From the IMG/VR virus record IMGVR_UViG_3300042326_001281: DNA of 64,000 bases, one strand, 5' to 3'. The stretch comes from an uncultured virus (IMG/VR IMGVR_UViG_3300042326_001281) (Duplodnaviria; Heunggongvirae; Uroviricota; Caudoviricetes). Every line of letters starts with the position of its first letter. Positions within the stretch are counted from its first letter, which is position 1. The notes beneath the pieces were generated by a model, which had not been told where the DNA came from, made no database searches, and saw only the letters and a list, made by a program, of their open reading frames with translations. Below, one piece after another: positions 6,801 to 47,415 of this stretch. The position numbers and the translations under genes are program-made.

Positions 6801-7060
6801 CCGCCTCATATAATAACTTATTTAATATTTATTCAATATCTGTAACTTCAGGTTCAGCAGATATTTATATAAATAATAACCTAGTTGCTAGTAATACGAT
6901 AGGTCAAAGCAAACTGTCTAATATTATTATTGGATCTGGAAAGGAGGGAAGTTTCAGCGGAGATATATGTGCTGTCCTACTCTATTCAGAGCAGCATAAT
7001 TCTTCAGTAAGAACTTTAGTGAACGAGTGGCTTGAAGAGTCATTTAATATATCATATTAG
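3824..7060 (+). CDS. Large virion protein with LamG/concanavalin-like and carbohydrate-binding-like modules
   Basis: MSY..LILQD..WPLDD N-terminus, ISFWI, LKLWLDS...WKDLS module, YWDNLGL CBM-like module, FSGDICAVLLY ending. Confidence 0.6.
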   Translation: MSYSKLILQDSANIVWPLDDISQSSSISQSINFLSSNPFAYSASINTSSTDIIEVPILFGGGKALNFTSSDIGLSVPALDRFSELYKNKNSCISFWIQVDQLTTTERLIFKKRGTDNVSLLIKDNYLIFRYGKNNDYMEASGYLNNPEEPNHIVLAKTPESIFIIINGNTFSPRESNNISLDKDNSHNDNNYLDFYGPSIGSWVIDSIAIYSNILNESSAKRHYVYGLGKNFGDDIFYSRGGSIYNLSTIDTEKLFRANWRYPQEWYSATINNLNNSVTGIQPVNFSEPDFYTYESNIQTASNRISFRTTSGSVSAGSYIDITSLFRKIGTGENPFFVKVKLDGPLPNNFVKQRIMSIGEKPDNEIIKFNLYNNSGSYQLMVETIDSSSVTFNIENIQSKPSIYLGMQFIGDSIFYFSQEGSSLISESLNYSDVDGYGIDPLTPYFPLSSNKLIRIGSSISYDRNNFSVDLPSVEQFGGSFESLLVHDKEFTSSVSHAYLDNYRNSSYKLTFDSNLNRFKAFSYGDVTFNIHAINISEFITDTEQKIGANIISVGYPDIISSSQVLVYVTHLDYSASVIYPKTRIYQNNYLPFINNKNISGTYLKFDIEVYSEDSNYYPPIITNFVMETYKANDNKVVIRSDSANSYTLHQSASSIYLPDIKRTPNIFITKFSGLKLFNSVADFTDTFSGKPLDPTTIPSLKLWLDSRFINGLGKTQPIDDSRVSYWKDLSFNNNDAYQLTASVSPIFRIQSQNLFTNNQANGTESGETNGIVSINSIAQSSSDGVISGRKSIKIIPNESSIDSYINMNHNTASISVSPNQSYSVLGTVTVPRVQSASALHNISRGIAVYTFDGNSLSFTASSQANNIPGEYNLKTTFTTSSATKYAEIRFYNGSYKTSDIIYWDNLGLYSYTSSAITSSWSIPGVSLNDMPVIKFNGNERLLSTASSNQPYTLYLVARSFNEGNLIGYTASGLSLYSASGYFYTKSVLPLLTASYNNLFNIYSISVTSGSADIYINNNLVASNTIGQSKLSNIIIGSGKEGSFSGDICAVLLYSEQHNSSVRTLVNEWLEESFNISY

Positions 7061-7608: not shown

Positions 7609-9273
7609 ATGGCTACTGTAAATAAAGACTTTGTTGTTAAGAATGGTGTGGTGGCTGGTGCAAACGTTCAAGGCGTACAAATCGTATCAACGACCTCATC
7701 TCTGCCACCATTTACCGTTACATCATCTGCTAATGTAGCGAATTTGAGTGCTGATCTACTTGATGGACTACACTCTGGATACTTTGTTGACTGGAACAAT
7801 ACTACCAATAAGCCAAGCCCCGTCCTTACTTTTGAAGGCGACGTAACTGGAACATTAACCCTTAGTAACCTTACAAATGCTTCAGTATCTCTTACCATTG
7901 CTGCAAATTCTATTGCTCTTGGAACAGATACAACTGGTAATTATCTAGCAGCACTTTCAGCAGGGACTGGTGTAAGCATTAGTTCTTCCGCTGGTGAAGG
8001 TGCTACTCCTACCGTTTCAATTGGTCAGGATGTAGCCACATCAGCCAATGTTTCTTTTAATACTATTACTTCAACAGCACTTACTGGAGCCCCGTTTGTA
8101 GTTTCATCTTCAGTACAAGTAAATAACTTTAACTCACAGTATTTAGGTGGATATACTGTTGATCAACTTCTTTCAATGGGCGGCGTGCAATCTGTAATTG
8201 GAACAGTGGATGAAATTGAAGTTTCTGCATCTGTTGGCAATATTCAGGTGGGACTTCCAGATAGTGTAAGCATTTCTGGAGACCTAACAATTGGTCGAAA
8301 CCTATATGTAAGTGGATCTACTGTTGTTATTAATAGCACTATCGTAGAGATTGATGATCCAATATTTACTTTAGGCGGAGCATCCTTAATAGATGATTCA
8401 AAAGATCGCGGCATCGAATTTAGATGGAATGATAGTCCAAACACTAAGATTGGATTCTTCGGCTTTGACGATTCTACTGGCAAGTTTACCTTTATCCCAG
8501 ATGCAACAAATACTGATGAAGTATTTAGTGGTACAAAGGGAGAAATCGATGCAAGTCTAGATTGGTCTAATGTTTTAAATAAGCCAGACCCCTCACTAAC
8601 ACTACTTGGTGATGTAAGTGGTAACGCTACATTTACAGATCTTGGCTCTGCCTCACTTACTGTCACAGTAGAAAAAGACTTTAACCTAGTATTCACTGGT
8701 GATGTAACTGGTACAGGAACGGTATCCAATCTTAATAGTGCAAGTATCGCTCTTACAATTGCCGCTAATTCAATTACACTCGGAACAGATACTTCTGGAA
8801 ACTATGTAGATGGAATATATGGCACTCCAGATCAGATTTTTGTTGCTGGGTCTGGAACAGAAACTGCATCTGTCGTATTAAGTCTTCCACAGAGCATTGC
8901 TACAACCTCAACACCTACATTTGCTGGTGTAAATCTAAATCAAGGTGGAATAACAAGTAGTTCTGTTACTGTTACTGTAAATAGTACCGATACCACGATT
9001 GATTCTTTTGCAGTAACCTCCTTTACTACTGCTGAATATGTAATTCAAGCAAAGCAAGGAACTAAAATGACATCCACTAAAGTTCTTGTTATGTGGGATG
9101 GAACAAATGTATATATTTCAGAATACGCAATTGTTGATAGTTCCGCTGGAGCAGCAAACATTACACTTAGTGCTAGTGAGTCTAGTGGAACGGTATCGCT
9201 TACTGCATCATCTCCAGACGCTGCATCTACTAACGTTGTAATTAGGGCTATTAGAACTGCATTAGACGTATAA
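7609..9273 (+). CDS. Fibre protein
   Basis: G/S/T-rich; repeated FxGDVTG and LGTDTxGNY motifs; IDDPIFTLG/DRGIEF fibre segment. Confidence 0.65.
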   Translation: MATVNKDFVVKNGVVAGANVQGVQIVSTTSSLPPFTVTSSANVANLSADLLDGLHSGYFVDWNNTTNKPSPVLTFEGDVTGTLTLSNLTNASVSLTIAANSIALGTDTTGNYLAALSAGTGVSISSSAGEGATPTVSIGQDVATSANVSFNTITSTALTGAPFVVSSSVQVNNFNSQYLGGYTVDQLLSMGGVQSVIGTVDEIEVSASVGNIQVGLPDSVSISGDLTIGRNLYVSGSTVVINSTIVEIDDPIFTLGGASLIDDSKDRGIEFRWNDSPNTKIGFFGFDDSTGKFTFIPDATNTDEVFSGTKGEIDASLDWSNVLNKPDPSLTLLGDVSGNATFTDLGSASLTVTVEKDFNLVFTGDVTGTGTVSNLNSASIALTIAANSITLGTDTSGNYVDGIYGTPDQIFVAGSGTETASVVLSLPQSIATTSTPTFAGVNLNQGGITSSSVTVTVNSTDTTIDSFAVTSFTTAEYVIQAKQGTKMTSTKVLVMWDGTNVYISEYAIVDSSAGAANITLSASESSGTVSLTASSPDAASTNVVIRAIRTALDV

Positions 9274-9298: not shown

Positions 9299-11890
9299 TT
9301 GGCAACGGTAGATAAAAACTTTAAAATAAAGAATGGCCTTATAGTAGGAGATTCTACAAATCTTGTTAACTATTCATCTGCCTCCCCCTCAAATCCATTC
9401 ATAGGTCAACTTTGGATTAATGAACCATATCTGTATGCATGGTCATCTGCATCCACATGGGTATTAGTTGGAGATGGAAACTCTGGTGGCGGTGGAGGGG
9501 GTTCTGCCTCAGGAACTCCATTAAATATACCCAATACATTAGTTTCTAGAAGTGCTTCTGGAATATTTTCTATTGGCGGCATCGACCTTGATCTCTCTGG
9601 AACAGTACCTCTAGGCGTAGGTAGATTACAATGGAATTCTTCTGTTGGAACTCCAGAAGTTGGTTTAATTGGCGGTAACGTTACTGCTCATATCGGACAG
9701 CATGTTCATGCATATGTAACAAATGCTGAAGGTTCCCCCCTTGTTAAAGGTGATGTTGTTTATTTATTTGGAGCGTCAGGAGATAGAGCATCTGTTAAAA
9801 AAGCAATTAACACAGGAGATCCCACATCTTCTAAAACTTTGGGGGTAGTTGCAGAGGCAATTGGTACTAATCAAAATGGTTTTGTTACCGAATTTGGCGT
9901 TGTAAATGGACTTAATTTAAGTGCATATTCACCTGGAGATACTTTATGGCTATCTGCTTCTGCTGGTAAATTTACTAATATTAAACCTTCTGCTCCAAAT
10001 CATACAGTTTTTATTGGTGTTGTAGAAAGAGCAAATTCTGGAAATGGTCAACTTTTTGTTAATGTTCAGAACGGTTATGAGTTAAGTGAAATACATGACG
10101 TCTTAATAAATGGCATTGCAGACAACCATATAATTTCATACAATCAATCTTCTAGTTTATGGCTTAATCAAAATCTTGCAACGGCTATACAAGAAGTTGA
10201 CGGATCGGGATCAGGAATAGATGCTGACCTACTTGATGGACACCATGCATCATACTTTTTAGACACTTCTTCAAACACCCAAGAAAAAACAGGAAATATA
10301 ACTTTTCATGGAACTTTAACTGTTAATGAATTAGTAGTATCTGGAAGTTCTGCATTTATAGCAACTCAAGACTTAACTGTTACAGATTCATTAATTTTTC
10401 TAGCATCAGAACAATATACTACAGACGGTTTAGATATTGGTTTTGTTGGTTCCTATGGTGATGGAACTACTTCTTCTGCCAGTCATTACCATGCCTCACT
10501 TGTAAGAGACGCCTCTGAAAATAAATGGAAACTTCTTTCAAATGGTCCTGCTCCAGTTAATAATGTTATAGATTATTCCGATCCATCTGTTGAGTTTGGA
10601 GTATTACAACTTGGCGCTATAGAGATCTCATCCAGCGCTAAGGTAAATAATTTAAACGCTGACTTATTAGACAATCAAGACGGCTCCTACTATCTGGATT
10701 GGACAAATACAACTAATAAACCAGATCCAATTATAGGTGTTGAACTTACTGGTAATACGTCTGGAGCCGCTTCTGTTACATTAACAGATTTAAATAGTGG
10801 TCAAATTACTATTACAACTAATACTACTCATGCCACAACTGCATCCTCTATGAATTGGAGCGGAGTTACAGATAAACCAGACCCCATTATTGGTGTATCT
10901 TTATCTGGTAATACTACTGGTGCCGCTAGTGCCACCCTGACTGATCTTGCTAATGGACAGATATCAATTACGACAAATACAGCACACGCTAATACAGCAT
11001 CTTCAATTAATGCTTTATTAATTACAGGGACTACTCTTCCTGCTGCAATAGTTGGATCAAGTTTAACAAGCGTAGGGACGTTAACAAACCTATCTGTAAC
11101 AAACGTAATTAGTGGAATAGTAGCGTCTGCAAACTTTGCAGTACATGCACTAACTGCTTCTAGTATAGCGGGATCACTAGTTACTGGACCAGTTGGTTCT
11201 GCTAATTTTGCGCTTCATGCATTAACGGCCTCATCTATTGCAGGATCTCTAGTAACAGGCACTGTAGCAAATGCTACTAATGCTACACATGCAGATACAG
11301 CATCAAGTATTAATTCTTCATTACTTACAGGCACAACGCTCCCCTCAAGTGTTGTTGACTCAAGTCTTACTAGCGTTGGAACGTTGACTAATTTATCCGT
11401 AACAAACGTTATTAGTGGCAGAGTTGCATCTGCTAATTTTTCCTTACATTCATTAACTGCATCTTCTATGAATTGGGTGGGAATAACAGATGCACCAGAT
11501 CCAATCATTGGGGTTAATTTAACAGGTGAAGTTACTGGCGCTGCCTCCGCTACTTTGACAAATTTAACTAATGGTCAAATTTCTATAACAACAACCATTG
11601 CTCCAGACTCAGTTATTCTTGGCACAGATACGACAGGAAATTATGTAGCAGGGGCTACTGGTGGTAATGGTATAATTATATCTGGAACAGCAGGAGAAGG
11701 ATGGTCTCCTACAATTACCGTTCATTCATCTGCTCTTACAGCAAGTGTTTCTGGAACATCTCCTACAGGAGCCGCAACAGTTAGTGCATCAACAAGTCCA
11801 GGAGGATTTAGAAATGTCTTTTTCTCTACAGCCTCCGCAGGAACAGGCGGCTTTGGAAATGATGGAGATGTTTGGCTTGTCTATGTTTAA
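9299..11890 (+). CDS. Fibre protein, paralogue of 7609..9273 (TTG start)
   Basis: Shares MATVxKxFxxKNG start, ADLLD, WxNTTNKP and LGTDTTGNY motifs; internal repeats; ends with GNDGDVWLVYV. Confidence 0.65.
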   Translation: MATVDKNFKIKNGLIVGDSTNLVNYSSASPSNPFIGQLWINEPYLYAWSSASTWVLVGDGNSGGGGGGSASGTPLNIPNTLVSRSASGIFSIGGIDLDLSGTVPLGVGRLQWNSSVGTPEVGLIGGNVTAHIGQHVHAYVTNAEGSPLVKGDVVYLFGASGDRASVKKAINTGDPTSSKTLGVVAEAIGTNQNGFVTEFGVVNGLNLSAYSPGDTLWLSASAGKFTNIKPSAPNHTVFIGVVERANSGNGQLFVNVQNGYELSEIHDVLINGIADNHIISYNQSSSLWLNQNLATAIQEVDGSGSGIDADLLDGHHASYFLDTSSNTQEKTGNITFHGTLTVNELVVSGSSAFIATQDLTVTDSLIFLASEQYTTDGLDIGFVGSYGDGTTSSASHYHASLVRDASENKWKLLSNGPAPVNNVIDYSDPSVEFGVLQLGAIEISSSAKVNNLNADLLDNQDGSYYLDWTNTTNKPDPIIGVELTGNTSGAASVTLTDLNSGQITITTNTTHATTASSMNWSGVTDKPDPIIGVSLSGNTTGAASATLTDLANGQISITTNTAHANTASSINALLITGTTLPAAIVGSSLTSVGTLTNLSVTNVISGIVASANFAVHALTASSIAGSLVTGPVGSANFALHALTASSIAGSLVTGTVANATNATHADTASSINSSLLTGTTLPSSVVDSSLTSVGTLTNLSVTNVISGRVASANFSLHSLTASSMNWVGITDAPDPIIGVNLTGEVTGAASATLTNLTNGQISITTTIAPDSVILGTDTTGNYVAGATGGNGIIISGTAGEGWSPTITVHSSALTASVSGTSPTGAATVSASTSPGGFRNVFFSTASAGTGGFGNDGDVWLVYV

Positions 11891-11926: not shown

Positions 11927-12655
11927 TTGTTAGAATTTAGAGTCGATTGGGAAGAATATGGTCTAGGTGAAGACCATCACCTCCATATGTTTAAGCCTGT
12001 ACCAGCAGTCAAAATGTTGCCAGAATGGTTCAAAAGGCTAGGAGAAGATTCTGGCTGTGAGCATAATAATTGGCCTACCGCTAAAACCTGTAGAGGCGTT
12101 TTTGATTCTATGTCTAGCGGCTACATTATTAAATGGCCTTTTGACGTAAGAATACAAAGGGACGAGAATGGTAGACTTTTCTGCTATAAGTCACGAACGG
12201 GAGACAACCATGACTTCAAGCCTCATCCACACTATCAATTAGAAGGATATCCAGATTTATTATTAGAATCTCAAAGAGACGGTATACAAAAACTCAATCT
12301 ACCGTATAGGGTTAGAACTCCTGCTGGGACCAGTATTTTGATGAAGCAGCCAGCATATAGGCCAGACCTAAAAACTGAAGCAATGGAAGGTATAATAGAT
12401 ACCGATAAATTCTATGGAACCTTTAATGTACTATTTAACATTAAAAAAATAGATACAAAGAGAAAAGTTGTAATTCCCGCTGGAACTCCGTTGGCTCAAG
12501 TTATTCCATTTGTTAGAGGAGAATGGGAGATTTCATATGGAGAGATTGATCAAGATAAAAAAAAGATCAATGATGATCTAGCAGACAATATAGAAAAGTT
12601 TTATCAAAAATATCAATGGGAAAGGAAGATATTTAAAAATGAAGCAGTTGACTAA
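11927..12655 (+). CDS. Conserved phage protein (DUF6065/dUTPase-like fold suspected)
   Basis: PEWFK, KTC..VFD, GIIDTD and IPAGTPLAQVIPFVR motifs; paralogue of 13270..13983. Confidence 0.5.
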   Translation: MLEFRVDWEEYGLGEDHHLHMFKPVPAVKMLPEWFKRLGEDSGCEHNNWPTAKTCRGVFDSMSSGYIIKWPFDVRIQRDENGRLFCYKSRTGDNHDFKPHPHYQLEGYPDLLLESQRDGIQKLNLPYRVRTPAGTSILMKQPAYRPDLKTEAMEGIIDTDKFYGTFNVLFNIKKIDTKRKVVIPAGTPLAQVIPFVRGEWEISYGEIDQDKKKINDDLADNIEKFYQKYQWERKIFKNEAVD

Positions 12656-13295
12656 TTTACCCCCAGGTATTGAAATATTCTCTAATATTATTTCTTACTC
12701 AGAGGCAGATGCCATGGTAGATATTATAGAGAGTGCTATTGATACAAAAAATAACTGTAATTTACAGTGGGGTCTTCCAAAAATGCACTCACCTGACATT
12801 TCTTCACTAAGAAGAAATGATGCTGTCGCTGTTTCAGAGCATACCTTTCTTAACGCAGATTGTTCATGCGGACTTAAAGAAATAGACTCAACATTAGGTA
12901 AATTAATGTTAAAGTGTCTAGAAAAATATGTATCTAAATATGACATTGGAATAACACAAGACGAGGGGTTTTATTGTGTTAAATATGATAAGTCACATGT
13001 TGATTTTGGAGTGGTAGACGATAATCCTTTTGTCAATAGAGTGGTTTCTATGCATATGCCATTAAATATAAATGAGCCAACAGAGTACATTAAATTTAAA
13101 AATTTAGATTTTTCTATTAGTATCTCATCACCATCAATTATTTTATTTCCATCCAATTTTCTTTTTTCATACGAAAAACCCTATACAGAGGGTCTATATG
13201 AAATTCAAAACTTTTTTAATAATAACCCAGACAATCAATTCTTTGATAAAATTTTTGGCGAAGAGGTTTCTATTTCTTTGGAAAAATCTGATTAG
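12639..13295 (+). CDS. Degenerate 2OG-Fe(II) oxygenase-like protein
   Basis: Aligns by eye to 17027..17629 (ITQDE, RVxS, PSIxLFPSN) but has VVD in place of HVD and Y in place of the distal His. Confidence 0.6.
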   Translation: MKQLTNLPPGIEIFSNIISYSEADAMVDIIESAIDTKNNCNLQWGLPKMHSPDISSLRRNDAVAVSEHTFLNADCSCGLKEIDSTLGKLMLKCLEKYVSKYDIGITQDEGFYCVKYDKSHVDFGVVDDNPFVNRVVSMHMPLNINEPTEYIKFKNLDFSISISSPSIILFPSNFLFSYEKPYTEGLYEIQNFFNNNPDNQFFDKIFGEEVSISLEKSD

Positions 13296-13983
13296 TTCTA
13301 AGGTTTCTATAAAAACCAGAGCCAAAACTTTCAACAAAGTGTCGGGTTTGTTGAATAAACCCTTTATCAGAACCAAACTTCTTATAGTTTAAACTAATGC
13401 TATCTCTTTTTACAAAGATTACCTTCATGAATGGAGTTCCCGCATCGATCTTTCCTTCAAAATTGCTATTAACAAGAAAAGGAAAATTAACGGGGGCTTT
13501 ATATTTATCAACCTGCACCATTGCACCTATAAATAAAAGAGGGTATCCAGTATACGGGTAGTAAGGAATATACACAGCAGAATACCCATCTGGGGCTTCA
13601 ATATAAAAAGGAAAATCTACTTTATATGGAGCATAAGAATATTCTTTTGGATATGGTAGTTCTTGCAACTGCTGGGGAGAGTGATGGCCTAGTTTACAGT
13701 TAAAGGACTCAGTGCTAGAACTTAATTGTTGGTTCAGACCAGTTCCCTCTGCATATAGAGAAAATGGAAAGTGAAGGGTCAGCCCATATGATAAATAATC
13801 AAAAACTGGCATACATCTTTTTATAGACTGCGCCTTATCTTTTTTCACAGACTTACTAAGATTATTTACATATGAATCACTTTTTTTATACCATTCAGGA
13901 ATTTCATTATCGCTTTTACGAATACAATATTCCATGAAGTCGCCACCATAAGTTTCTTCAATTGGATAAACATTAATTTCCAT
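13270..13983 (-). CDS. Conserved phage protein, paralogue of 11927..12655
   Basis: IPEWYKK, IKRCMPVFD, NFPF and IDAGTPFMKVIFVKR motifs. Confidence 0.55.
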   Translation of the reverse strand: MEINVYPIEETYGGDFMEYCIRKSDNEIPEWYKKSDSYVNNLSKSVKKDKAQSIKRCMPVFDYLSYGLTLHFPFSLYAEGTGLNQQLSSSTESFNCKLGHHSPQQLQELPYPKEYSYAPYKVDFPFYIEAPDGYSAVYIPYYPYTGYPLLFIGAMVQVDKYKAPVNFPFLVNSNFEGKIDAGTPFMKVIFVKRDSISLNYKKFGSDKGFIQQTRHFVESFGSGFYRNLRTNQIFPKK

Positions 13984-13998
13984 TAAGAGTGTTCCTAT

Positions 13999-14307
13999 CT
14001 ATATTTTAGAAATAAAAGATTGAAGTTCTGGATAATCTTCAACATTAACATTATACTTCTCAGACATATGCAAAACAATATCTTTAAATATTTTTTTTGC
14101 GGAATTCCAAGAAGTAGTAAAACCAGACATATAAATAATATGATCATGTTCAACTGGTTTAAATATGGTATAGAAAGCCTGCTGACCATGAGACCCTATA
14201 ATATTAGAGATAGATAATTCGTACCTTTGATCATTAGAATCAATAAAAAACTTCTTTATCCTATAATCTGATAAAAATCTATTAGTTGATAAGTCTATAT
14301 CTGACAC
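13999..14307 (-). CDS. Hypothetical protein (start revised to GTG 14307)
   Basis: TGCTATAAT lies 6 nt upstream of an in-frame GTG; this start removes the overlap with the 14343 gene. Confidence 0.5.
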   Translation of the reverse strand: MSDIDLSTNRFLSDYRIKKFFIDSNDQRYELSISNIIGSHGQQAFYTIFKPVEHDHIIYMSGFTTSWNSAKKIFKDIVLHMSEKYNVNVEDYPELQSFISKI

Positions 14308-14313
14308 AGAATA

Positions 14314-14336
14314 ATTATAGCATGGCGTGATATAAT
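14314..14336. promoter_or_regulatory. Back-to-back divergent extended -10 promoters
   Basis: Minus-strand TGCTATAAT (14322-14314) and plus-strand TGATATAAT (14328-14336), each exactly 6 nt from a start codon. Confidence 0.7.
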
Positions 14337-14342
14337 TTAGGA

Positions 14343-16064
14343 ATGGCAAATGCAAAAGTTGGAGGAACTTGGCGAACTGTTAAACTGCCATATGCTAGAG
14401 TTTCTGGTCAATGGAAGCCTTGTAAGCAGATGTATGCTAAAGTCGGTGGGGTTTGGAAAATAACATTTGATATCACAGCCGCCGACCCATTTGATGGCAC
14501 TGGATCATTAGATGGACAGTTGACCCCAGGATATGCTCCCTGGGAAGTAATAAGTGGTACTTGGACAGAATCTGGTGGAAATGTATCGTCATCAGATACC
14601 TCCGATAGAGTTGCTGCACTAGAAACTGGGCTAACAGATGTTGAAGTAGAAATTGATAGGACTACGGCAGCAACAGGCGGTGACGGAGTAGCCTTTTGGA
14701 TTCAAGACCAATCGAATTGGTGGGGCGTGAGAGCGTACACTGAAGAATATTTCGTTCCATTCACTAATTTTACTTACTATCCATTTAATTGTACTGATTC
14801 ATTTAGAACAAGAAATATTACACAGAATCCATCCGTTCCAGGAACAGCAATCCCTGGAACTAATAATATTGCAAGCCCAGGAAATGTTGTAACCCCTGGA
14901 AATGTAAGTGCCTTTGGAACATGTACGAATACAACTGGGTGTACAGGAACATGTTGTTTTACCCCAGTTCCTTCTACTCCTGTTCCTGGAAGTAATAATA
15001 TTGTAAATTCTGGAACATTTGTATCCTGTAACTATTCCCTCTCTTATTTCAGTATGATTACTAATAGAAATACATTTCTTGCAACAATTTCAACTAGAAC
15101 TTGTTCATGTAGTGGTAATTCAAATAGTAATTGTAGTCTTTCGTTTGGTAGTGGAGGTAATAACTGCATTAATGGTTGTGGACCAACAAATTATCCAGGC
15201 CCTAGCCCCTTTCCTTGTAATAGAAATCCAGACAATAGATCATTCGCAACAAGAATATCTGGATGTGGGAGCGGGTGCGGACCAGCATGTGGACCAATTT
15301 GTGGAGCCTCGCCTTCGCCTAGTAATGTTAACAGCATATTTCAATTATTCTGCCCTAATGCTTCATCATATAATAATTTCTCATTTAATAATGCAAACTG
15401 TTCTTGTGCATATGGCGTTAGTGCTACTAAAGCAAACTTTACTAATAATCCACCGAATTATAATGCTCCGAATAATAACCCTGCTAGTAATAATGCCCCA
15501 AGGTTTAATAATCCACCGAGTTTTAATACTCCAACTAATAATGTGCCAAATTATAATCCTCCAAATAATAACACCCCTACTCCAGCATCATGCACATGTA
15601 CAGATGGACCAATTACTAACAGTAATTATCTTAGTTTTATATCTAGTAACGTAAGTTTTCCTGTATGTGCTAATAATATTCCATGCTCTTCAACTCAACC
15701 TACAGGAACATTATATTCACGATCATGTGTAGCATGTCCTGCTGGGTCACCTTCTTGTATTACAAGTTTTTCAGGTGTAAATGCAGCATATTACAAACGA
15801 GGTCAAATTATTAGAAAATCTGGCGGAACATTAAATGTAATAACTAATCAAGACTTTGGCGATGTAGGAAACGTCTATGCTTATACCTCTGGGAATACAA
15901 TTGGATTTAGACAATACTCAGCGACAGGTAGAGCAGGAACTTCATCAAATCTAGTAACCTATGACGCTGGTCCAATAAATAAAGGGACTAAGCATGGTAT
16001 AATCGTTACCGCAGTTCCATACACTCAAAGTTATTCTATAAGTAGATTTAAGGTGAATGTTTAA
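14343..16064 (+). CDS. Cys/Asn/Pro-rich putative fibre-tip adhesin
   Basis: Three N-terminal (K/R)V(G/S)GxW repeats; beta-rich domain interrupted by an insert with 26 Cys and NNPP-type repeats. Confidence 0.55.
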   Translation: MANAKVGGTWRTVKLPYARVSGQWKPCKQMYAKVGGVWKITFDITAADPFDGTGSLDGQLTPGYAPWEVISGTWTESGGNVSSSDTSDRVAALETGLTDVEVEIDRTTAATGGDGVAFWIQDQSNWWGVRAYTEEYFVPFTNFTYYPFNCTDSFRTRNITQNPSVPGTAIPGTNNIASPGNVVTPGNVSAFGTCTNTTGCTGTCCFTPVPSTPVPGSNNIVNSGTFVSCNYSLSYFSMITNRNTFLATISTRTCSCSGNSNSNCSLSFGSGGNNCINGCGPTNYPGPSPFPCNRNPDNRSFATRISGCGSGCGPACGPICGASPSPSNVNSIFQLFCPNASSYNNFSFNNANCSCAYGVSATKANFTNNPPNYNAPNNNPASNNAPRFNNPPSFNTPTNNVPNYNPPNNNTPTPASCTCTDGPITNSNYLSFISSNVSFPVCANNIPCSSTQPTGTLYSRSCVACPAGSPSCITSFSGVNAAYYKRGQIIRKSGGTLNVITNQDFGDVGNVYAYTSGNTIGFRQYSATGRAGTSSNLVTYDAGPINKGTKHGIIVTAVPYTQSYSISRFKVNV

Positions 16065-16231
16065 TGTCAGAAAAAATTAATTATATTAAAGAATTACGGT
16101 CTAACAGACTTGATATTTGCAAAAATTGTGAGTTTTTTAATAAAATTACAACTCAATGCAATAAATGTGGGTGTATAATGTCTATGAAAACATTGCTTGC
16201 AGATGCAAAATGTCCTATAGGAAGGTGGTAA
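16064..16231 (+). CDS. 55-aa Cys-rich microprotein (DUF6171-like), not in the ORF track
   Basis: MSEKINYIKELRSNRLDICKNCEFFNKITTQCNKCGCIMSMKTLLADAKCPIGRW; TAATG coupling to the upstream gene. Confidence 0.75.
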   Translation: MSEKINYIKELRSNRLDICKNCEFFNKITTQCNKCGCIMSMKTLLADAKCPIGRW

Positions 16232-16232
16232 C

Positions 16233-16817
16233 ATGAGAATAATATGTACAGTTGATAATTCATTTTTATTAGAAACAGAAGATGGATTAGTCTATCCATT
16301 TAATATGAATAATATTGATGTTCTGGTGGCAGAACTATCTTTAGATATTGATGTTTGCAATGAAATAAAAAATAAAGTGCTTGATATAATGAAAGAAAAA
16401 ATTGATAAGAAGCAACTGACTCAAACACTTTCTATTGAAAAAATTGCACAGTATATTCAAAGCCTTATTTTATTAAATGAATATATGCCAGTCCTTGAAA
16501 TTCTAGATAGATCAACTAGAACACATAAAATGATTACTACAGACAAGCCATATGAAACATGGCAGTGGGACTATCAAAAAGAAGAATATGTAGCACCTAT
16601 GCCATACCCAACAAAATTAGTAGAGTCTGAGCCAGATAAATATATTTGGAATGATGACTCTCTTTCATGGGAACCTGCTGAACCAGCCCCACATAGAGGT
16701 TGGCTGTGGGATTATGCTAAAGAAAAGTATACTTCTCCCGTACCATATCCATTAGATGCAGAACCAGATGAATTTAAGTGGGATGAAGAAAAAATGTTAT
16801 GGGTGGTTAATGACTAA
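16233..16817 (+). CDS. Trp/Pro-repeat phage protein (fibre-associated)
   Basis: Duplicated WxWD....Y..P.PYP.....Y/F.W.D/E....W units in the C-terminal half. Confidence 0.5.
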   Translation: MRIICTVDNSFLLETEDGLVYPFNMNNIDVLVAELSLDIDVCNEIKNKVLDIMKEKIDKKQLTQTLSIEKIAQYIQSLILLNEYMPVLEILDRSTRTHKMITTDKPYETWQWDYQKEEYVAPMPYPTKLVESEPDKYIWNDDSLSWEPAEPAPHRGWLWDYAKEKYTSPVPYPLDAEPDEFKWDEEKMLWVVND

Positions 16818-17025
16818 ATGGGTAAACTTATACATCTTCCTGTTTTTAATTAATATAATTACTTTAATATTTTTTAACCTATCTATAATATTTACATCTT
16901 TACTTGTAATTTCAGCAGGCATTGTGATATATTTTTCATATAAAAATAAAACTACATCTATCGTTCATGTAGTAATGCTACTACTATCAATATTATTGTT
17001 AGTATTATCTATAATAAGGGTTTAA
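16810..17025 (+). CDS. Small multi-TM membrane protein
   Basis: Highly hydrophobic; likely ATG 16810 overlapping the previous stop region. Confidence 0.45.
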   Translation: MTKWVNLYIFLFLINIITLIFFNLSIIFTSLLVISAGIVIYFSYKNKTTSIVHVVMLLLSILLLVLSIIRV

Positions 17026-17026
17026 T

Positions 17027-17629
17027 ATGACTAAAAAAATACTGGCTCCAGGAGTTGTTCAATATCCATTTCCAAAAAAATTAGCCAGAAGTTTAATCGA
17101 TATGCTTGAAAGTGATGATAGTGTACCCTGGGACAGAAGCCTTGTTGGTACTAATGGGCACTCTAGCGATGTAAGAACAAGTGAGCAGATAGCACTTGAA
17201 GCAGAAATGCCAATTGCAGCGTCAAAAATAAAAGAAGTCTTTATTGAGTGTGTTAAAGAATATATGGAAGATTATGAAATTAATATTACTCAGGACGAGT
17301 CGCTAGTTCTACTTAGATATAGCGAGTATAATAAGTACGACTATCATGTAGATGCAAATTGGAATTTATACAGAGTTTTATCAGGTCTTATTTATTTAAA
17401 CCCAACAGAATATGAAGGCGGCGAGACCCACTTTGATCAGTTTGATTTATCAATTAATCCTGAAGAACCATCAATAGTTTTATTTCCATCAAATTATATC
17501 TATAAACATGCTGCTATGCCAGTTACTTCTGGGGTAAAATATATTATTGTTACATGGATGAATGACTTACCACCAGGAATTCATCCAACCATTATAAATT
17601 CTATTGCACATGCGACAGGAAGACATTAG
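17027..17629 (+). CDS. 2OG-Fe(II) oxygenase, prolyl-4-hydroxylase-like
   Basis: HVD...LIYLN..YEGGET.F...LFPS..YKH...VTSGVKY with intact HxD...H triad and a 2OG-binding Lys. Confidence 0.85.
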   Translation: MTKKILAPGVVQYPFPKKLARSLIDMLESDDSVPWDRSLVGTNGHSSDVRTSEQIALEAEMPIAASKIKEVFIECVKEYMEDYEINITQDESLVLLRYSEYNKYDYHVDANWNLYRVLSGLIYLNPTEYEGGETHFDQFDLSINPEEPSIVLFPSNYIYKHAAMPVTSGVKYIIVTWMNDLPPGIHPTIINSIAHATGRH

Positions 17630-17643
17630 TATATAATAATTTT

Positions 17644-18480
17644 ATGATTAAGTATCTAGGCTCACTTGGCACATTTATTCGTCTTAATGATAGCGATAAT
17701 AAAAACTATAATTTAGTTAGAATTTTTTCTTCTTCTGCTGCCTCAAACTTATTATTTTCTGCAAGTGTCAATAATTTAAACGGATCGGTAAGAATCAGCA
17801 CTGCCTCTACATCTGTATATGTTAATGGAGTATCTGGATCTGTTATCCCAAACCAGAAGTGGTCACACCTTTTATTCTCTTTTGATAATAAACTTTATAC
17901 AAAAGATAGCAATGACTTTTTAATTAGATTTGGTGATACAGCAAGTTCTAATTTTAATATACAAAACTTATATATGCTTGAAGCATCAACATCCCCAGAT
18001 GACGCTGAGTATCTACACTATTCTTTTACAGGGGCGGGTGGCAATGTAATTAGAGTAACCGATACTGCATCTTGCTCAATTAATATAATTGACTATCCTG
18101 AAAACAATTTCATATCAGCATCTTCTAATGTCATCTATCAGCCCCTGAAAGATCAAAAAAGATATCTTACCGATATCACAGCGCTTTCTGAATTAAGCCT
18201 AATCAATTATGTTTCTGCATCAGTCCTATCTGCCGACCTTTTATATGTCGATGGTTTTCAATTATCAGAAGGGGATAAAGTTCTTTCAGTATTAGATGAT
18301 CAGATCTATCAGTTAACAGGATCATCTCAACTTATTACAATTAGTAGTTCTGTTGGAGACTTTATTAAAGTTATTTCTGGCAATCAATTTAAAAATTCAT
18401 TCCTAATAAAAACTAGTGAAGGGTTTATTTTTACTAATGCTAGGCAAAAAATTGACTATATGATGAACGTTTTTAACTAA
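17644..18480 (+). CDS. Virion protein with a LamG-like N-terminal portion
   Basis: VYVNG...WSHLLFSF...IRFG...IQNL pattern; TATAAT lies 6 nt upstream of the ATG. Confidence 0.45.
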   Translation: MIKYLGSLGTFIRLNDSDNKNYNLVRIFSSSAASNLLFSASVNNLNGSVRISTASTSVYVNGVSGSVIPNQKWSHLLFSFDNKLYTKDSNDFLIRFGDTASSNFNIQNLYMLEASTSPDDAEYLHYSFTGAGGNVIRVTDTASCSINIIDYPENNFISASSNVIYQPLKDQKRYLTDITALSELSLINYVSASVLSADLLYVDGFQLSEGDKVLSVLDDQIYQLTGSSQLITISSSVGDFIKVISGNQFKNSFLIKTSEGFIFTNARQKIDYMMNVFN

Positions 18481-18510: not shown

Positions 18511-18834
18511 ATGGGACTACAAGTAGTAAGAGATAAGAGCAATTACGGTATATATGTATGGCTTCTGCCAGAAGGCGGAGTTTTTAAGGATGATGATAAT
18601 AACGTTCTTAATATTCCTTCTGAAAAAGGAGATATCACAAAGATGGCGGAGATTCGTAAAGTCGCCGCTCATTATGGACAGCCAGAAGGACAAGCAGTAT
18701 TCATTCCTGGAATTGGTCGGGTAACAGAAGAAGAATACCAAGAAGACAAGTATAGAATGGAAAATGGCCTTCTATCTTATGGAGATACGGGAGCGTGGAG
18801 AGATGCAGCAAGAGCAAAAAGATCTCTGGATTGA
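18511..18834 (+). CDS. Conserved hypothetical protein upstream of portal
   Basis: Clean ORF; TGGTACTAT lies 7 nt upstream of the ATG. Confidence 0.6.
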   Translation: MGLQVVRDKSNYGIYVWLLPEGGVFKDDDNNVLNIPSEKGDITKMAEIRKVAAHYGQPEGQAVFIPGIGRVTEEEYQEDKYRMENGLLSYGDTGAWRDAARAKRSLD

Positions 18835-20404
18835 TAGTGTTGGCTTAGATAAAGCCATAGGTTCAAGTTCATTTAATGCAAATGAAAAAGATGACTTCAA
18901 TCAGGATGCCGAAAGTATCCTTAACTTAAATGGATTATCACAAAACTTTAAACGTTCTGCTCGTAGAAAAATGAGCAAAGGTTTAGTTACTGCTGGCGGA
19001 GTTATTGTAGAAGCAGAAGACAACATGTATGCTGGTGACGGGGCATCCTCTAAACAAATTATTCCAGACAAGTACGGATATGGACTGTTTGATGTTGTGG
19101 AGCCTTTATACAATCAACATGCATTAGCAAAAATTTATGAACTTTCTGCTCCAAACTATGCAGCAATTAATGCTAAGGTAGCAAATATTGTTGGCCTTGG
19201 ATATGATTTAGTTCCAACTTTAAACGTTATGGAAAAGATAGAATCTATCTCTGATACAGAAGAATTAGGAAGAGTAAGAAGAAATCTTGCTCGTCAAAAG
19301 AGTAGAATTATTGACTGGCTAGAAACAAGAAATGACGATGATACTCTTACGATGACCCTAATGAAAGCGTATATTGACGCTGAAACTACAGGAAATGGAT
19401 ACATTGAAGTTGGTAGAAAAACAACTGGGGAGATTGGTTATATTGGACATATACCCGCTCCAACAATGCGAGTCCGCCGCCTACGCGATGGCTTTGTACA
19501 GATTGTGAGTGGAAAAGCCGTATATTTTCGTAATTTCCAGGGTGAGGAAAAAAATCCTATTACCACTGATCCACGACCAAATGAAATTATTCATATTAAA
19601 AATTACACTCCAACAAACACATACTATGGAGTTCCAGCCATTGTAGCCGCCAAAAATGCTATGGCTGGCAATGAATTTGCCTCAAGATTCAACCTTGAGT
19701 ATTTTGAAAATAAAGCAGTTCCTCGTTATATTTTCTGGCTTAAAGGTGCAAAAATGTCTCGTCAGGCAGAAGAAAGACTATTTGAATTTTTCCAGGGTAG
19801 TCTAAGGGGTCAAAGCCATAGAACTGCTGTTATACCTATCCCAGGAGACACCCCTGATAATAAAGTAGAAATGAAGATGGAGCCCATTGAAACTAATATT
19901 CAGGATTCATCATTTAATAACTATAAGAAGATGAATAAGGATGAAATTCTTATGGCTCATCGCGTGCCTGCATCTAAGGTGGGGGCAGCAGAAGGTATTG
20001 GTCTTGCAGCAGCAAGAGAGGCAGATAGAACATTTAAAGAGCAAGTTTGCCGCCCAGCACAGGATTCTCTAGAAAAGAAAATTAACAAAATTATTGCAGA
20101 AAAAACAGACGCATTCAGATTTGAGTTTAATGAACTTACCCTAACAGATGAAGAAACTCGCTCAAAAATTGATGAACGATATTTGAGGATGCAAGTAATT
20201 GTTCCGAATGAAGTAAGAGAACGTCTTGGAATGTCAACACTTCCTAGTGGCGATACTCCAATTGTTCTAGGCCCACAGCAACGTGCGGAGCAAACTGCAC
20301 AGGCAACGGGTAATAGATTAAGAGATCAAGAGCGGTCGGCTAACCAGTCTGACGCCGCTGAACTTCCAAGAGCAACACAGGGCGATGGGAGACAGCAGAA
20401 TTAA
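18803..20404 (+). CDS. Portal protein (likely start ATG 18803)
   Basis: GNGYIE, NEIIHIK, YYGVP, YFENKAVP, ILMAHRVP and PNEVRERLG motifs; GGAG before 18803. Confidence 0.9.
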   Translation: MQQEQKDLWIDSVGLDKAIGSSSFNANEKDDFNQDAESILNLNGLSQNFKRSARRKMSKGLVTAGGVIVEAEDNMYAGDGASSKQIIPDKYGYGLFDVVEPLYNQHALAKIYELSAPNYAAINAKVANIVGLGYDLVPTLNVMEKIESISDTEELGRVRRNLARQKSRIIDWLETRNDDDTLTMTLMKAYIDAETTGNGYIEVGRKTTGEIGYIGHIPAPTMRVRRLRDGFVQIVSGKAVYFRNFQGEEKNPITTDPRPNEIIHIKNYTPTNTYYGVPAIVAAKNAMAGNEFASRFNLEYFENKAVPRYIFWLKGAKMSRQAEERLFEFFQGSLRGQSHRTAVIPIPGDTPDNKVEMKMEPIETNIQDSSFNNYKKMNKDEILMAHRVPASKVGAAEGIGLAAAREADRTFKEQVCRPAQDSLEKKINKIIAEKTDAFRFEFNELTLTDEETRSKIDERYLRMQVIVPNEVRERLGMSTLPSGDTPIVLGPQQRAEQTAQATGNRLRDQERSANQSDAAELPRATQGDGRQQN

Positions 20405-27764: not shown

Positions 27765-28117
27765 ACCTAGCCTCCATGTTGGGGGAAGTATTTCTTCTGG
27801 GACACTGGAAGGATTACGATGAACTTGAATCGTCGCTATCAATGCCAGAACTTGCTGCAACACTAAAAGCAGTATATGAATCTGAACGTAGGAGGCAAAA
27901 GTTTATGGCTGCTCTGCAAGGAATCGATATTGATGAGAAAGATGATAGCGATACCAGTGAGCAAAAGAGTGACAGGGTGCCCACTATTGAGGAAATCCAG
28001 GCAAGAGCGGTGGCGCGCTTGACTGGCAATAGAGATATGGCGGGTGCTATTAGCCAAGGTTTCACTCCAGACATGGGAGTAGAATATAAAATAGCGGAGG
28101 GTACAGTTCTTGGCTAA
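27719..28117 (+). CDS. Tail assembly chaperone extension (gpGT-like, -1 frame)
   Basis: -1 frame reads PSSDGSGTRWDDLDLASMLGEVFLLGHW..., continuous with the listed 27776..28117 ORF. Confidence 0.7.
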   Translation, partial: PKPSSDGSGTRWDDLDLASMLGEVFLLGHWKDYDELESSLSMPELAATLKAVYESERRRQKFMAALQGIDIDEKDDSDTSEQKSDRVPTIEEIQARAVARLTGNRDMAGAISQGFTPDMGVEYKIAEGTVLG

Positions 28118-46808: not shown

Positions 46809-46985
46809 ATGTCACAAACACTAGAACTTATTATTCAAGAACTACAGCAGCGTATTGGTCAAATGACCAGCGATTATGAAACAAAACTAGCAGTTATGAA
46901 GGCTCAGGCTACTGAGCAAATTCAGGCACGCGACAAGAAAATTATTGAACTAGAGGCTCAATTAGATGACAATTCAGATTCCTAG
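46809..46985 (+). CDS. 58-aa coiled-coil protein, not in the ORF track
   Basis: GAGGAG SD; MSQTLELIIQELQQRIGQMTSDYETKLAVMKAQATEQIQARDKKIIELEAQLDDNSDS. Confidence 0.7.
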   Translation: MSQTLELIIQELQQRIGQMTSDYETKLAVMKAQATEQIQARDKKIIELEAQLDDNSDS

Positions 46986-47415
46986 TGACGGTCAACCGTT
47001 AACATATGAACTGCTTAAACAGATTATCGATCAGGTCAACAGGGTATCATCTTCTGATCTCAATGATGTTAAGCAAATTGTAAATGTATATGGAGAAGGA
47101 ATTAGTCAGCAAGAAGATGCCAAGGCTGCTATCGTAACGGGGCAAAGAGTTATTACTTTACAAAAAGGAAATAACTCCAGAACAACACAGACAATTACAT
47201 TTCCAGCAGTGTTTTCTGCAAATCCATATGTAACTGTAACCATTGTAGATATTAATACTGCTAAGGCAGAGGGCGGAGTGAATGGTGCAGTTGCTACCGT
47301 TGTTGGGCTAAATAAAAATGGAATGACAGTAAAGATAGAACTTTTGAAAGAAGTTCCAGTAAATACTTCTGTGAGATTGAACTATATAGCAGTAGGTCCA
47401 GGCATAAATACTTAA
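46966..47415 (+). CDS. Small virion protein with H-type lectin-like beta domain
   Basis: ITFPAVFSANPYVTVT...LNYIAVG pattern. Confidence 0.5.
   Translation: MTIQIPSDGQPLTYELLKQIIDQVNRVSSSDLNDVKQIVNVYGEGISQQEDAKAAIVTGQRVITLQKGNNSRTTQTITFPAVFSANPYVTVTIVDINTAKAEGGVNGAVATVVGLNKNGMTVKIELLKEVPVNTSVRLNYIAVGPGINT

Follow-up and report, generated by a model that had tools for sequence, protein, structure and literature searches.

Introduction

Does a tailed phage with a hydroxylase-like gene among its fibre genes use that enzyme to tailor its own receptor-binding protein (RBP)? This question is raised by positions 11,927 to 17,629 of a 64,000-nucleotide stretch of DNA from an uncultured member of the Caudoviricetes (IMG/VR record IMGVR_UViG_3300042326_001281), the whole of which is called the window hereafter. 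Nine open reading frames (ORFs) lie in this cassette (Table 1): an oxygenase of the prolyl 4-hydroxylase (P4H) type that is predicted to use 2-oxoglutarate (2OG) and Fe(II) (I), a degenerate paralogue of it (B), two DUF6065 proteins (A and C), an RBP-type protein (E), a DUF6171 microprotein (F), and three further ORFs (D, G and H). An earlier annotation of the window, here called the sequence-only reading, had taken the cassette for a dedicated folding and post-translational modification pathway for E, comparable to a gene cluster for ribosomally synthesised and post-translationally modified peptides (RiPPs). All nine ORFs were found as that reading had drawn them, and its placing of the cassette between fibre genes and head module is borne out by fibre-like genes upstream and a portal gene downstream. 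Its functional claim stands in part: the association of RBP-type, DUF6171, oxygenase and DUF6065 genes is real and recurrent, but it is modular, and dedication to E finds no support from conservation. We tentatively propose, with a probability of about 0.4, that fibre proteins or RBPs of the virion are tailored here, DUF6171 serving as a docking domain and I as the hydroxylase.

Two Gene Modules in the Neighbourhoods of Relatives

Gene neighbourhoods were surveyed by three alignment-seeded scans of IMG/VR, and 80 loci were kept from each. The scan with DUF6065 found 546 relatives (78 non-self loci analysed, in 41 clusters at 60% identity), that with the E family 184 relatives (78 non-self loci analysed, in 24 clusters), and that with the 2OG oxygenases at least 630 relatives (77 non-self loci analysed). 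Note that the 2OG scan was seeded with a narrower alignment (A4), as the wide one (A3) was too divergent, and that our own 2OG hidden Markov model (HMM) was conservative, missing the annotated oxygenases of the cyanophages S-RIM44 and P-TIM40.

E-family genes were found next to DUF6171 with great regularity. A DUF6171 gene lay within 300 bp in 62 of 78 E-family loci (21/24 clusters) and within 5 kb in 75 of 78 (24/24 clusters), and two of the three loci without it in that range (L132 and L133) end at the E-family gene. Enzyme genes accompany this pair less often: within 5 kb of the E-family gene, a 2OG oxygenase was present in 23 of 78 loci and missing from 55, DUF6065 was present in 24, and GT60, a glycosyltransferase (GT) family, in 10. 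In addition, a protein combining GT2 with tetratricopeptide repeats (TPR) is encoded four genes upstream of the E-family gene in 21/78 loci (11/24 clusters); at least one of GT2-TPR, GT60 and a P4H-type oxygenase lies within 5 kb in 41/78 loci.

The DUF6065 loci gave another picture. A second DUF6065 gene was found within 300 bp in 23/78 loci (15/41 clusters), and a P4H-type oxygenase within 300 bp in 24/78 (8/41 clusters) and within 5 kb in 38/78 (15/41 clusters); GT60 and collagen-like ORFs lay within 5 kb in 15 and 25 of the 78 loci, respectively. Conversely, DUF6065 was present in the stretch analysed in 36/77 oxygenase loci, within 300 bp of an oxygenase in 26 of these 77, and DUF6171 in 10/77; a single oxygenase locus carries up to 11 oxygenase paralogues. 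Two modules are thus seen, namely a tight one of an E-family gene with DUF6171, and a recurrent but facultative one of DUF6065, often paired, with a P4H-type oxygenase. Each is mostly found without the other, and the survey supports the view that the genes of the cassette are not a chance juxtaposition.

The modules occupy the same place. In siphovirus-like relatives, both follow Mtd_N, collagen or fn3 fibre genes and precede genes for a LamG or carbohydrate-binding module (CBM) protein, an approximately 110-aa protein and the portal protein, and in the T4-like cyanophages S-RIM44 and P-TIM40 a cluster of DUF6065, 2OG oxygenase and halogenase genes sits between tail-fibre and neck genes. In the relatives, this LamG/CBM protein is 580–1240 aa long, and its gene comes without exception before those of the ~110-aa protein and the portal protein. 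In the closest relatives of A and I (44–52% identity; L009–L016), the order is collagen-repeat proteins, PF11397 (GT60), DUF6065, DUF6065 and 2OG oxygenase, continued by GT25, methyltransferase or epimerase genes. A P4H-type oxygenase and PF11397 are paired in L010, L012, L013, L055, L057 and L168, and in the last of these a single run before the portal gene holds E-family, DUF6171, DUF6065, GT60, DUF6065, 2OG oxygenase and DUF6065 genes. Locus L078 has a collagen-repeat protein, DUF6065, a 2OG oxygenase, a GT25+PLOD-GT+2OG fusion and then an FkbM methyltransferase.

Several other arrangements were seen among the relatives. The fusion protein of L078 (11232–12989; 585 aa, GT_PLOD E 1.4e-43) has an LH3-like architecture, and its contig carries an SU10-type adaptor protein. 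Arrays of 5–11 paralogous P4H-type oxygenase genes occur within about 16 kb in L220, L183, L184, L187 and others, often with a DUF6065 pair embedded; the arrays have Mtd_N-type fibre genes on one side and the portal gene on the other. On a T4-like contig with a gp15 homologue upstream (L178:5712–13617), three tryptophan-halogenase genes, a carbamoyltransferase gene and several 2OG-FeII_Oxy_5 genes form one run, and halogenases also stand alongside DUF6065 in L026, L237, S-RIM44 and P-TIM40.

The E Family and Its Partner DUF6171

The sequence-only reading had described E as a Cys/Asn/Pro-rich protein of 573 aa, and a count agrees: 27 Cys, 48 Pro and 69 Asn, with 25, 40 and 57 of these, respectively, in residues 146–470. 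In the alignment-based AlphaFold2 (AF2) model, residues 1–145 and 470–573 have a predicted local distance difference test (pLDDT) score of 85–98, and residues 160–450 are unstructured or unpredictable, the insert scoring below 50. The model places beta-hairpin repeats at the N-terminus (1–43), followed by a concanavalin A (ConA)-like lectin sandwich assembled from residues ~45–145 and ~470–573 and split by a hypervariable insert of about 320 aa that is rich in Cys, Asn, Pro, Ser and Thr. When the model was compared with solved structures by VIA-align, it matched CBM66 (4b1m; Z 17.4, root-mean-square deviation (rmsd) 2.6, 150 aligned), the receptor-binding domain of mycobacteriophage TM4 gp23 (9n6a; Z 16.1), the Douge baseplate (8zdo; Z 15.1) and CBM2 of the phage J-1 Dit protein (Z 13.0). 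Because of this ConA-like lectin fold with its CBM and phage RBP matches, E is, as modelled, an RBP-type protein, as the sequence-only reading had supposed.

An exhaustive HMMER search collected 126 representatives of the E family at E <= 0.001, 15 of them at <= 1e-30. The ends of these proteins are conserved and the middle is hypervariable, with 0–46 Cys residues, mostly at least 12, in the first 45 inspected; richness in Cys and Ser/Thr is the trait of the family, and richness in Pro is not. A tblastn search of isolated phages with E gave only a 39-aa N-terminal match in one Burkholderia phage. The link of E to the fibre genes is seen at the end of the upstream fibre protein, fibB, whose last ~60 aa are homologous to a separate gene of 76–78 aa (or 177–310 aa) directly upstream of E-family genes in relatives, with a gap of 0 in many loci (jackhmmer). 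This homology indicates that E belongs to the fibre set, and it makes A–D look like an insertion between fibB and E in the window phage.

The six-Cys microprotein of the sequence-only reading, F, has indeed six Cys residues and matches DUF6171 (PF19668; 27.1 bits against a cut-off of 27) and phrog_13558 (E 7.8e-15). Its pattern, which resembles a zinc finger, is C-x2-C ... C-x2-C-x-C ... C-P-x2-K-W, and C19, C22, C32, C35, C37 and C50 are invariant in 27 sequences. The domain was also found in longer proteins, for which 66 matches were obtained, all of them scanned with our own HMMs and 22 with Pfam. Specifically, it is fused to GT60 in six protein clusters, N-terminally in P0236 and P0237 and C-terminally in P0220, P0222, P0226 and P0230; to GT2 plus Methyltransf_24 in two clusters (P0274 and P0279); and, weakly, to a sulfotransferase-like region in P0231. 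The junctions of the GT fusions are continuous sequence without a Met or stop-like residue. P0263 and P0266 have a Met in the junction, and for these two a fusion to a 2OG domain is counted as possible only.

Since the domain stands free beside E-family genes and is fused elsewhere to glycosyl-, methyl- and sulfo-transferase-type enzymes, DUF6171 would be a docking domain, small and probably able to bind metal, by which tailoring enzymes are linked to the RBP. Note that four apparent fusions of E-family proteins to DUF6171 (P0215–P0218) were rejected as evidence, since their junction, '...(I or SG) Q ... N M' followed by a normal DUF6171 N-terminus, looks like a stop read as Gln; the Gln at the usual E-family end suggests that either the gene caller translated a stop codon as Gln or the phages in question truly recode it.

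The P4H-type Oxygenase and Its Paralogue

Protein I has a PF13640 domain (2OG-FeII_Oxy_3; E 2.8e-13), which scores 51.1 bits where the cut-off is 27, and it also matches phrog_61 (E 2.7e-31). It keeps H107, D109, H161 and K171, in columns that are H, D/E, H and K/R in 44/44 representative relatives, so that the iron triad and the 2OG-binding Lys are in place, and the intact P4H-like oxygenase announced by the sequence-only reading is recovered. Its best solved relatives are the collagen P4H structures of Bacillus anthracis (5iax/3itq/5hv0; E ~1e-6), followed in the PDB by the P4H of the chlorovirus PBCV-1 (5c5t; 0.027), LH3 (0.03) and PiuC (0.09). Judged by these residues and relatives, I is a P4H-type 2OG/Fe(II) oxygenase for which prolyl hydroxylation is predicted.

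B shares 33% identity with I over 141 aa (E 2e-17) and matches our own 2OG HMM (E 4.4e-36). Both the BLAST and the MAFFT alignment put Tyr178 in place of the distal His and leave B without a residue in the Lys/Arg column. An HxD motif is seen in one of them only: BLAST pairs H107 of I with a Val, MAFFT with an 'HVD' at B 120–122. The earlier label of a ligand-less paralogue is therefore right as to the paralogy and the loss of the distal His and of the 2OG-binding Lys/Arg, but slightly too strong, as HxD may persist under MAFFT. B is a homologue within the family and not a competent member of it; since 44/44 representative oxygenases of related loci keep all four residues, B is unusual and presumably a catalytically dead copy.

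Among isolated phages, homologues of I were found only as cyanophage 2OG-Fe(II) oxygenases (328 records; 25–32% identity among the matches listed). The best of them is the C-terminal domain of a 428-aa protein of Synechococcus phage S-SCSM2R (L245; 228299–234573), whose gene is followed by three GT genes (one GT25), an AHBA-synthase-like gene, a radical-SAM maturase gene of the SkfB/NifB/PqqE family and another oxygenase gene. When virions of this cyanophage were purified on CsCl, they were found to contain a 2OG oxygenase (PMC12801897), which counts in favour of the tailoring proposed below; the virion-detected oxygenase is the product of a different gene from the best homologue of I there.

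The DUF6065 Proteins

The two conserved proteins that the sequence-only reading had called paralogous, A and C, share 24% identity over 193 aa (E 4e-8), and both belong to phrog_7084 (E 4.9e-39 for A, E 1.2e-23 for C), which confirms the paralogy. A also matches DUF6065 (PF19541) marginally, at 26.8 bits against a cut-off of 26.6, and C gave no Pfam match. An atlas feature search with A returned DUF6065-type clusters only. The AF2 model of A has a pLDDT of 90.7, and all 7 Foldseek matches in the PDB at E<=0.001 are dUTPase or dCTP deaminase. Similarly, among 48,161 chains compared by VIA-align, ranks 1–21 all belong to the dUTPase superfamily (Z 8.8–4.7; next match Z 4.4), with 3t60_A at the top (Z 8.8, rmsd 3.8, 130 aligned). 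On this model, DUF6065 is a dUTPase-fold protein, and the role of A and C as folding factors of a dedicated pathway gains no support: the predicted fold is that of a dUTPase, and no folding factor or chaperone is recognisable in them.

When the DUF6065 profile was searched against the PDB, stretches like dUTPase motifs III and IV (GIIDTD... and GTPLAQVI) were aligned with E 0.035. The residues conserved in DUF6065 are C55, H100, S136, D158, D160, Q191 and R197, and the family has an N-terminal elaboration of ~100 aa. We take the dUTPase motifs I–V to include a phosphate-binding Arg in II and IV, Asp and Tyr in III and a Gly-rich V; with the motifs so defined, no Arg was seen in the DUF6065 consensus at the positions aligned to II and IV, nor a Gly-rich C-terminal motif.

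Among the relatives, a class II ribonucleotide reductase (RNR) gene directly follows DUF6065 genes in L032, L049–L054, L064 and L074. The only long DUF6065 relative, P0281 (499 aa, 5 contigs), has an HxD...H-like pattern in its C-terminal half, which gave sub-threshold PhyH and Gig2 matches (E 0.11 and 0.022) and a non-significant hhalign match; P0281 may be a DUF6065-oxygenase fusion.

Does the Cassette Tailor the Receptor-Binding Protein?

From the folds, catalytic residues, paralogy, neighbourhood statistics and domain fusions described above, we infer binding, hydroxylation and substrate as follows. The cassette combines two recurrent phage modules, as a mosaic, within the block of host-recognition genes that lies shortly before the portal gene. 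In the first, E would bind the receptor, the N-terminal hairpins acting as an anchor and the ConA-like sandwich with its hypervariable Cys-rich insert as the carbohydrate-binding part, and F would be its obligate partner that docks tailoring enzymes onto the RBP in the manner of a RiPP recognition element. In the second, made up of A, B, C, the C-terminal domain of G and I, the oxygenase I would hydroxylate side chains, most likely Pro, of neighbouring fibre proteins or RBPs, and A, B and C would be non-catalytic or accessory subunits alongside it. In the window phage, the Pro/Asn-rich insert of E would be the most plausible target. As the DUF6065/2OG module is mostly found without E-family genes (77/78 loci), it is the tailoring of fibre proteins and RBPs in general that gains support, and not E as the dedicated substrate.

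A number of observations weigh against tailoring of virion proteins. Within 5 kb of DUF6065 genes, an E-family gene was found in 1/78 loci and DUF6171 in 2/78; the oxygenase loci hold a collagen-like ORF in 7/77, GT60 in 4/77 and an E-family gene in 3/77; and 37/78 E-family loci, some with full flanks, have none of GT2-TPR, GT60 and P4H-type oxygenase within 5 kb. These and the other counts of the survey are raw numbers, uncorrected for the background enzyme density of phage genomes. DUF6065 also occurs in 49 haloarchaeal virus records, and in HJTV-3, the one haloarchaeal virus examined, the 6 kb to each side of the DUF6065 gene contain no annotated oxygenase. In the window itself, the Pfam-scanned ORFs of the 64 kb gave no Collagen, GT25, GT60 or GT2 match. 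E holds 7 Pro-Gly dipeptides, compared with about 5 by a hand estimate from its composition, and X-Pro-Gly motifs were accordingly dropped as a mark of E as a P4H substrate. Finally, the oxygenase arrays of relatives are accompanied by Trp halogenases, TauD, carbamoyltransferase and glutathione peroxidase, to which small-molecule or multi-target chemistry fits as well.

Much of this evidence is what one would expect if the two modules were functionally unrelated neighbours in a hypervariable island, with E and F constituting an RBP and its private folding or metal-loading factor, and the 2OG/DUF6065 genes being cyanophage-type cargo that acts on host proteins, small molecules, envelope glycans, 2-oxoglutarate itself or other non-virion targets. 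We consider this the main competitor, possible though short of probable. It accounts for the DUF6065/2OG module lacking E-family genes in 77/78 and 74/77 loci, that is, for homologues of the oxygenase and the DUF6065 proteins occurring independently of E-type genes, the pattern that the sequence-only reading had itself named as telling against it. It also fits the arrays of up to 11 oxygenase paralogues with their halogenases, TauD, carbamoyltransferase and glutathione peroxidase, and the isolated-phage homologues of I, which are cyanophage oxygenases with a published interpretation as modulators of nitrogen stress and 2OG or as DNA-repair enzymes (PMC3037559). Moreover, the fibre-adjacent region is described as a variable island in freshwater actinophages (PMC10202952). 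However, cargo of this kind leaves unexplained why DUF6171 is fused to GT60, GT2-methyltransferase and other tailoring enzymes, and why GT60, GT25, PLOD-GT, GT2+TPR and collagen-repeat fibre genes stand beside the module in the closest relatives, and the fibre-to-portal position is conserved across siphovirus-like relatives.

A nucleotide-directed role appears improbable. It would have the dUTPase-like protein handle a pyrimidine nucleotide and the oxygenase hydroxylate the base of a nucleotide or of DNA, with glycosylation to follow where relatives carry a GT, as in TET/JBP-type hypermodification. What keeps this reading alive, at the expense of virion tailoring, is the dUTPase/dCTP-deaminase fold of A, with its motif III/IV-like stretches that align to dUTPases, and the occasional adjacency of class II RNR: in HJTV-3, the DUF6065 gene stands between a class II RNR gene and the adhesin and fibre genes, several relatives also have such an RNR gene next to DUF6065, and the window holds an RNR gene at 1879–3813. 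The oxygenases of two relatives also give sub-threshold Tet_JBP matches. Nevertheless, I and its relatives match PF13640, and their nearest solved structures are P4H and not TET/JBP or AlkB; the DUF6065 consensus lacks the Arg of motifs II and IV and the Gly-rich C-terminus, with the motifs as assumed above; the accompanying families GT60, GT25 and PLOD are, as we take them to be, protein-directed types; and the cassette is placed among the structural genes, a long way from the replication module at 50–58 kb.

The strictest form of the original claim, in which all nine genes including D, G and H make one dedicated maturation pathway with E as the sole substrate, has in its favour that E, F, G, H and I are tightly packed and co-directional and that one unbroken run in L168 and in the L111 group comprises E-family, DUF6171, 2OG, GT60 and DUF6065 genes, but it is very doubtful given that homologues of D, H and J are confined to identical contigs, that A–D look inserted between fibB and E, and that the enzyme module lacks E-family genes in the great majority of loci (E-family gene in 1/78 DUF6065 and 3/77 2OG loci, no 2OG oxygenase in 55/78 E-family loci).

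Comparison with Known Systems

In RiPP pathways, the recognition element is free-standing or fused to tailoring enzymes. DUF6171 resembles it in that it either stands alone next to the gene of the putative substrate or is joined, at one end or the other, to a GT60, GT2+methyltransferase or sulfotransferase-like enzyme, and this behaviour is the strongest support for a RiPP-like analogy. In contrast, DUF6171 is a six-Cys domain that is not PqqD-like as far as tested, and the putative 'precursor' is a virion protein of 300–690 aa without a leader peptide. No Pfam family for a short leader-core precursor, a PqqD-like element or a core maturase was found in the region, and E is a folded protein of 573 aa. 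Of the RiPP-like cluster proposed by the sequence-only reading, then, the recognition-element behaviour of DUF6171 survives and membership of the class does not; the analogy is a functional one only.

Among solved hydroxylases, the P4Hs of Bacillus anthracis and PBCV-1 share with I PF13640, the HxD...H triad and the 2OG-binding Lys. Unlike them, I has only ~200 aa with a shorter loop after HxD, and its companions are DUF6065 proteins and a presumably dead paralogue, in a window without a collagen-repeat protein. The mimivirus protein L230 is a multifunctional collagen lysyl hydroxylase/glycosyltransferase, comparable to human LH3/PLOD3. The GT25+PLOD-GT+2OG fusion beside a collagen-repeat protein in L078 recalls these two enzymes, and LH3 is a weak PDB match of I (E 0.03); the window, however, has no such fusion, GT or collagen repeats, and it belongs to a tailed phage and not to a giant virus. 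In the Skp1 pathway of protists, prolyl hydroxylation by a P4H is combined with a GT60 N-acetylglucosamine (GlcNAc)-transferase. The closest relatives likewise pair a P4H-type oxygenase with PF11397, 'Glycosyltransferase (GlcNAc)', whereas no PF11397 gene was found among the Pfam-scanned ORFs of the window, and DUF6065 and DUF6171 have no counterpart in the Skp1 pathway.

A further comparison is with non-enzymatic or signalling proteins of the dUTPase fold. The model of A aligns to pp71 of human cytomegalovirus (8qdo; Z 5.9), ORF10 of murine herpesvirus 68 (MHV-68) (7byf; Z 5.6) and the staphylococcal phage Dut (3zez; Z 7.8), and these set a precedent for uses of the fold other than dUTP hydrolysis. 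DUF6065 differs from these proteins in having no detectable sequence relationship to them and its own set of conserved residues. Mycobacteriophage-encoded transferases reportedly glycosylate structural proteins of their own phages, namely capsid and tail tube (Freeman and co-workers, 2023); oxygenase, DUF6171 and DUF6065 are not known to play a part in that system. The cyanophage 2OG 'auxiliary metabolic genes' include the homologues of I, and in S-RIM44 and P-TIM40 the same clusters carry DUF6065 and Trp halogenases. The window, on the other hand, is siphovirus-type with a Streptomyces-phage-like portal protein, and the published interpretation of the cyanophage genes is metabolic or DNA repair and not virion tailoring (PMC3037559).

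Gene Layout and Genome Context

The window is a siphovirus-type phage genome with a GC content of ~30–46%, ~37% around the cassette, whose genes are given in Table 1. The portal protein downstream shares 53% identity with Streptomyces phage portal proteins, and a prohead-protease gene lies in the same block. E, F, G, H and I have abutting or overlapping ends and run in the same direction. A scan for regulatory sites gave 36 promoter-like sites where 33.9 were expected and 4 terminator-like sites where 3.6 were expected. A 5.5-kb stretch of the region is present at 100% identity on two IMG/VR contigs, and viral contigs searched with E or A as the sole query yielded two identical contigs only; a blastn search of isolated phages with the region gave no match.

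Table 1. Genes of the cassette and its immediate flanks, with positions in the window.
Gene	Position	Strand	Product or assignment
fibA	7609-9273		fibre-like
fibB	9299-11890	+	863-aa fibre protein; phrog_19602 tail fibre
A	11927-12655	+	DUF6065 / phrog_7084; predicted dUTPase/dCTP-deaminase-like fold
B	12639-13295	+	degenerate paralogue of oxygenase I
C	13270-13983	-	second DUF6065 / phrog_7084 paralogue, inverted
D	13999-14355	-	118 aa, lineage-specific, no family match
E	14343-16064	+	573 aa, RBP-type; predicted ConA-like sandwich split by Cys-rich insert
F	16064-16231	+	DUF6171 six-Cys microprotein
G	16233-16817	+	194-aa Trp/Pro-repeat protein
H	16756-17025	+	small hydrophobic membrane-type ORF
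I	17027-17629	+	predicted P4H-type 2OG/Fe(II) oxygenase, intact
J	17644-18480		278 aa, weak sub-threshold Laminin_G_3 match
portal	18764-20404		portal protein (PF04860, E 1.1e-35)

The remaining ORFs of the cassette are less widely distributed. D gave no Pfam, PHROG or NCBIfam match, NCBIfam added nothing further for A–H, and homologues of D, H and J are confined to near-identical contigs in a jackhmmer search over the fetched loci. The small membrane protein and the Trp/Pro-repeat protein of the sequence-only reading are both recognisable. The translation of H is strongly hydrophobic and of membrane type; its true start is probably an internal Met, since the ORF as listed overlaps G by 62 nt. 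G has WxWD...PxPYP repeats and matches phrog_7759 (E 2.4e-5). A domain made up of its C-terminal ~50 aa is found again (jackhmmer) in ORFs of ~100 aa that immediately precede DUF6065 genes; matches were obtained at 12 non-self loci, and at 8 of these a match lies 3–188 bp from a DUF6065 gene. No run of at least four G-X-Y triplets was found in fibA, fibB, G, J or p3824, the protein of 1078 aa encoded at 3824–7060. This last protein has a sub-threshold Laminin_G_3 match, that of J being weaker.

Elsewhere in the window, the RNR gene is of the adenosylcobalamin (class II) type and is found among the structural genes, before those of the fibres (TIGR02505, E 6.1e-94, just under the cut-off). The tape-measure protein (28110–35921; 2603 aa) has SLT/lysozyme-like and NlpC/P60 peptidoglycan-hydrolase domains near its C-terminus, and an HNH endonuclease gene (47415–47876) is placed between the gene of a tail-fibre-like H-type-lectin protein (46966–47415) and the replication module.

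Significance for Phage Host Recognition

No mention of 'DUF6065' or 'DUF6171' was found in the literature searched, 'prolyl 4-hydroxylase' was not found among the matches listed for phage collagen-like tail fibres, and titles and abstract openings on phage hydroxyproline, glycosyltransferases and virions yielded nothing on hydroxylation of phage fibres. Sullivan et al. (2010) related the 2OG oxygenases of cyanophages to 2OG and nitrogen stress and to DNA repair (PMC3037559), and a 2022 paper counted 24 2OG oxygenase genes in one phage, with functions 'not specifically investigated' (PMC9602691). For freshwater actinophages, tail-fibre and collagen-like genes are described within the variable island (PMC10202952).

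The role of many cyanophage-type 2OG-Fe(II) oxygenase genes has been open since they were first catalogued, and virion tailoring offers another reading of them. Three uncharacterised parts are defined here, namely DUF6171 as a putative enzyme-linked docking domain, DUF6065 as a protein of predicted dUTPase fold, and the E family as lectin-type RBPs, as modelled, with a Cys-rich insert. This is the first structural or contextual assignment for the three components, in what would be a variant of known viral systems for the modification of structural proteins. A more general proposition, which we hold to be rather unlikely, is that aquatic tailed phages run a RiPP-like tailoring of their own RBPs, in which DUF6171 would recruit hydroxylases and glycosyl-, methyl- and sulfo-transferases to the Cys-rich insert, P4H-type oxygenases with DUF6065 would hydroxylate virion proteins, and host range would be set in part by phage-encoded post-translational modification. 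If it is true that phages chemically tailor their RBPs, one layer of host-range determination would escape any prediction made from sequence only.

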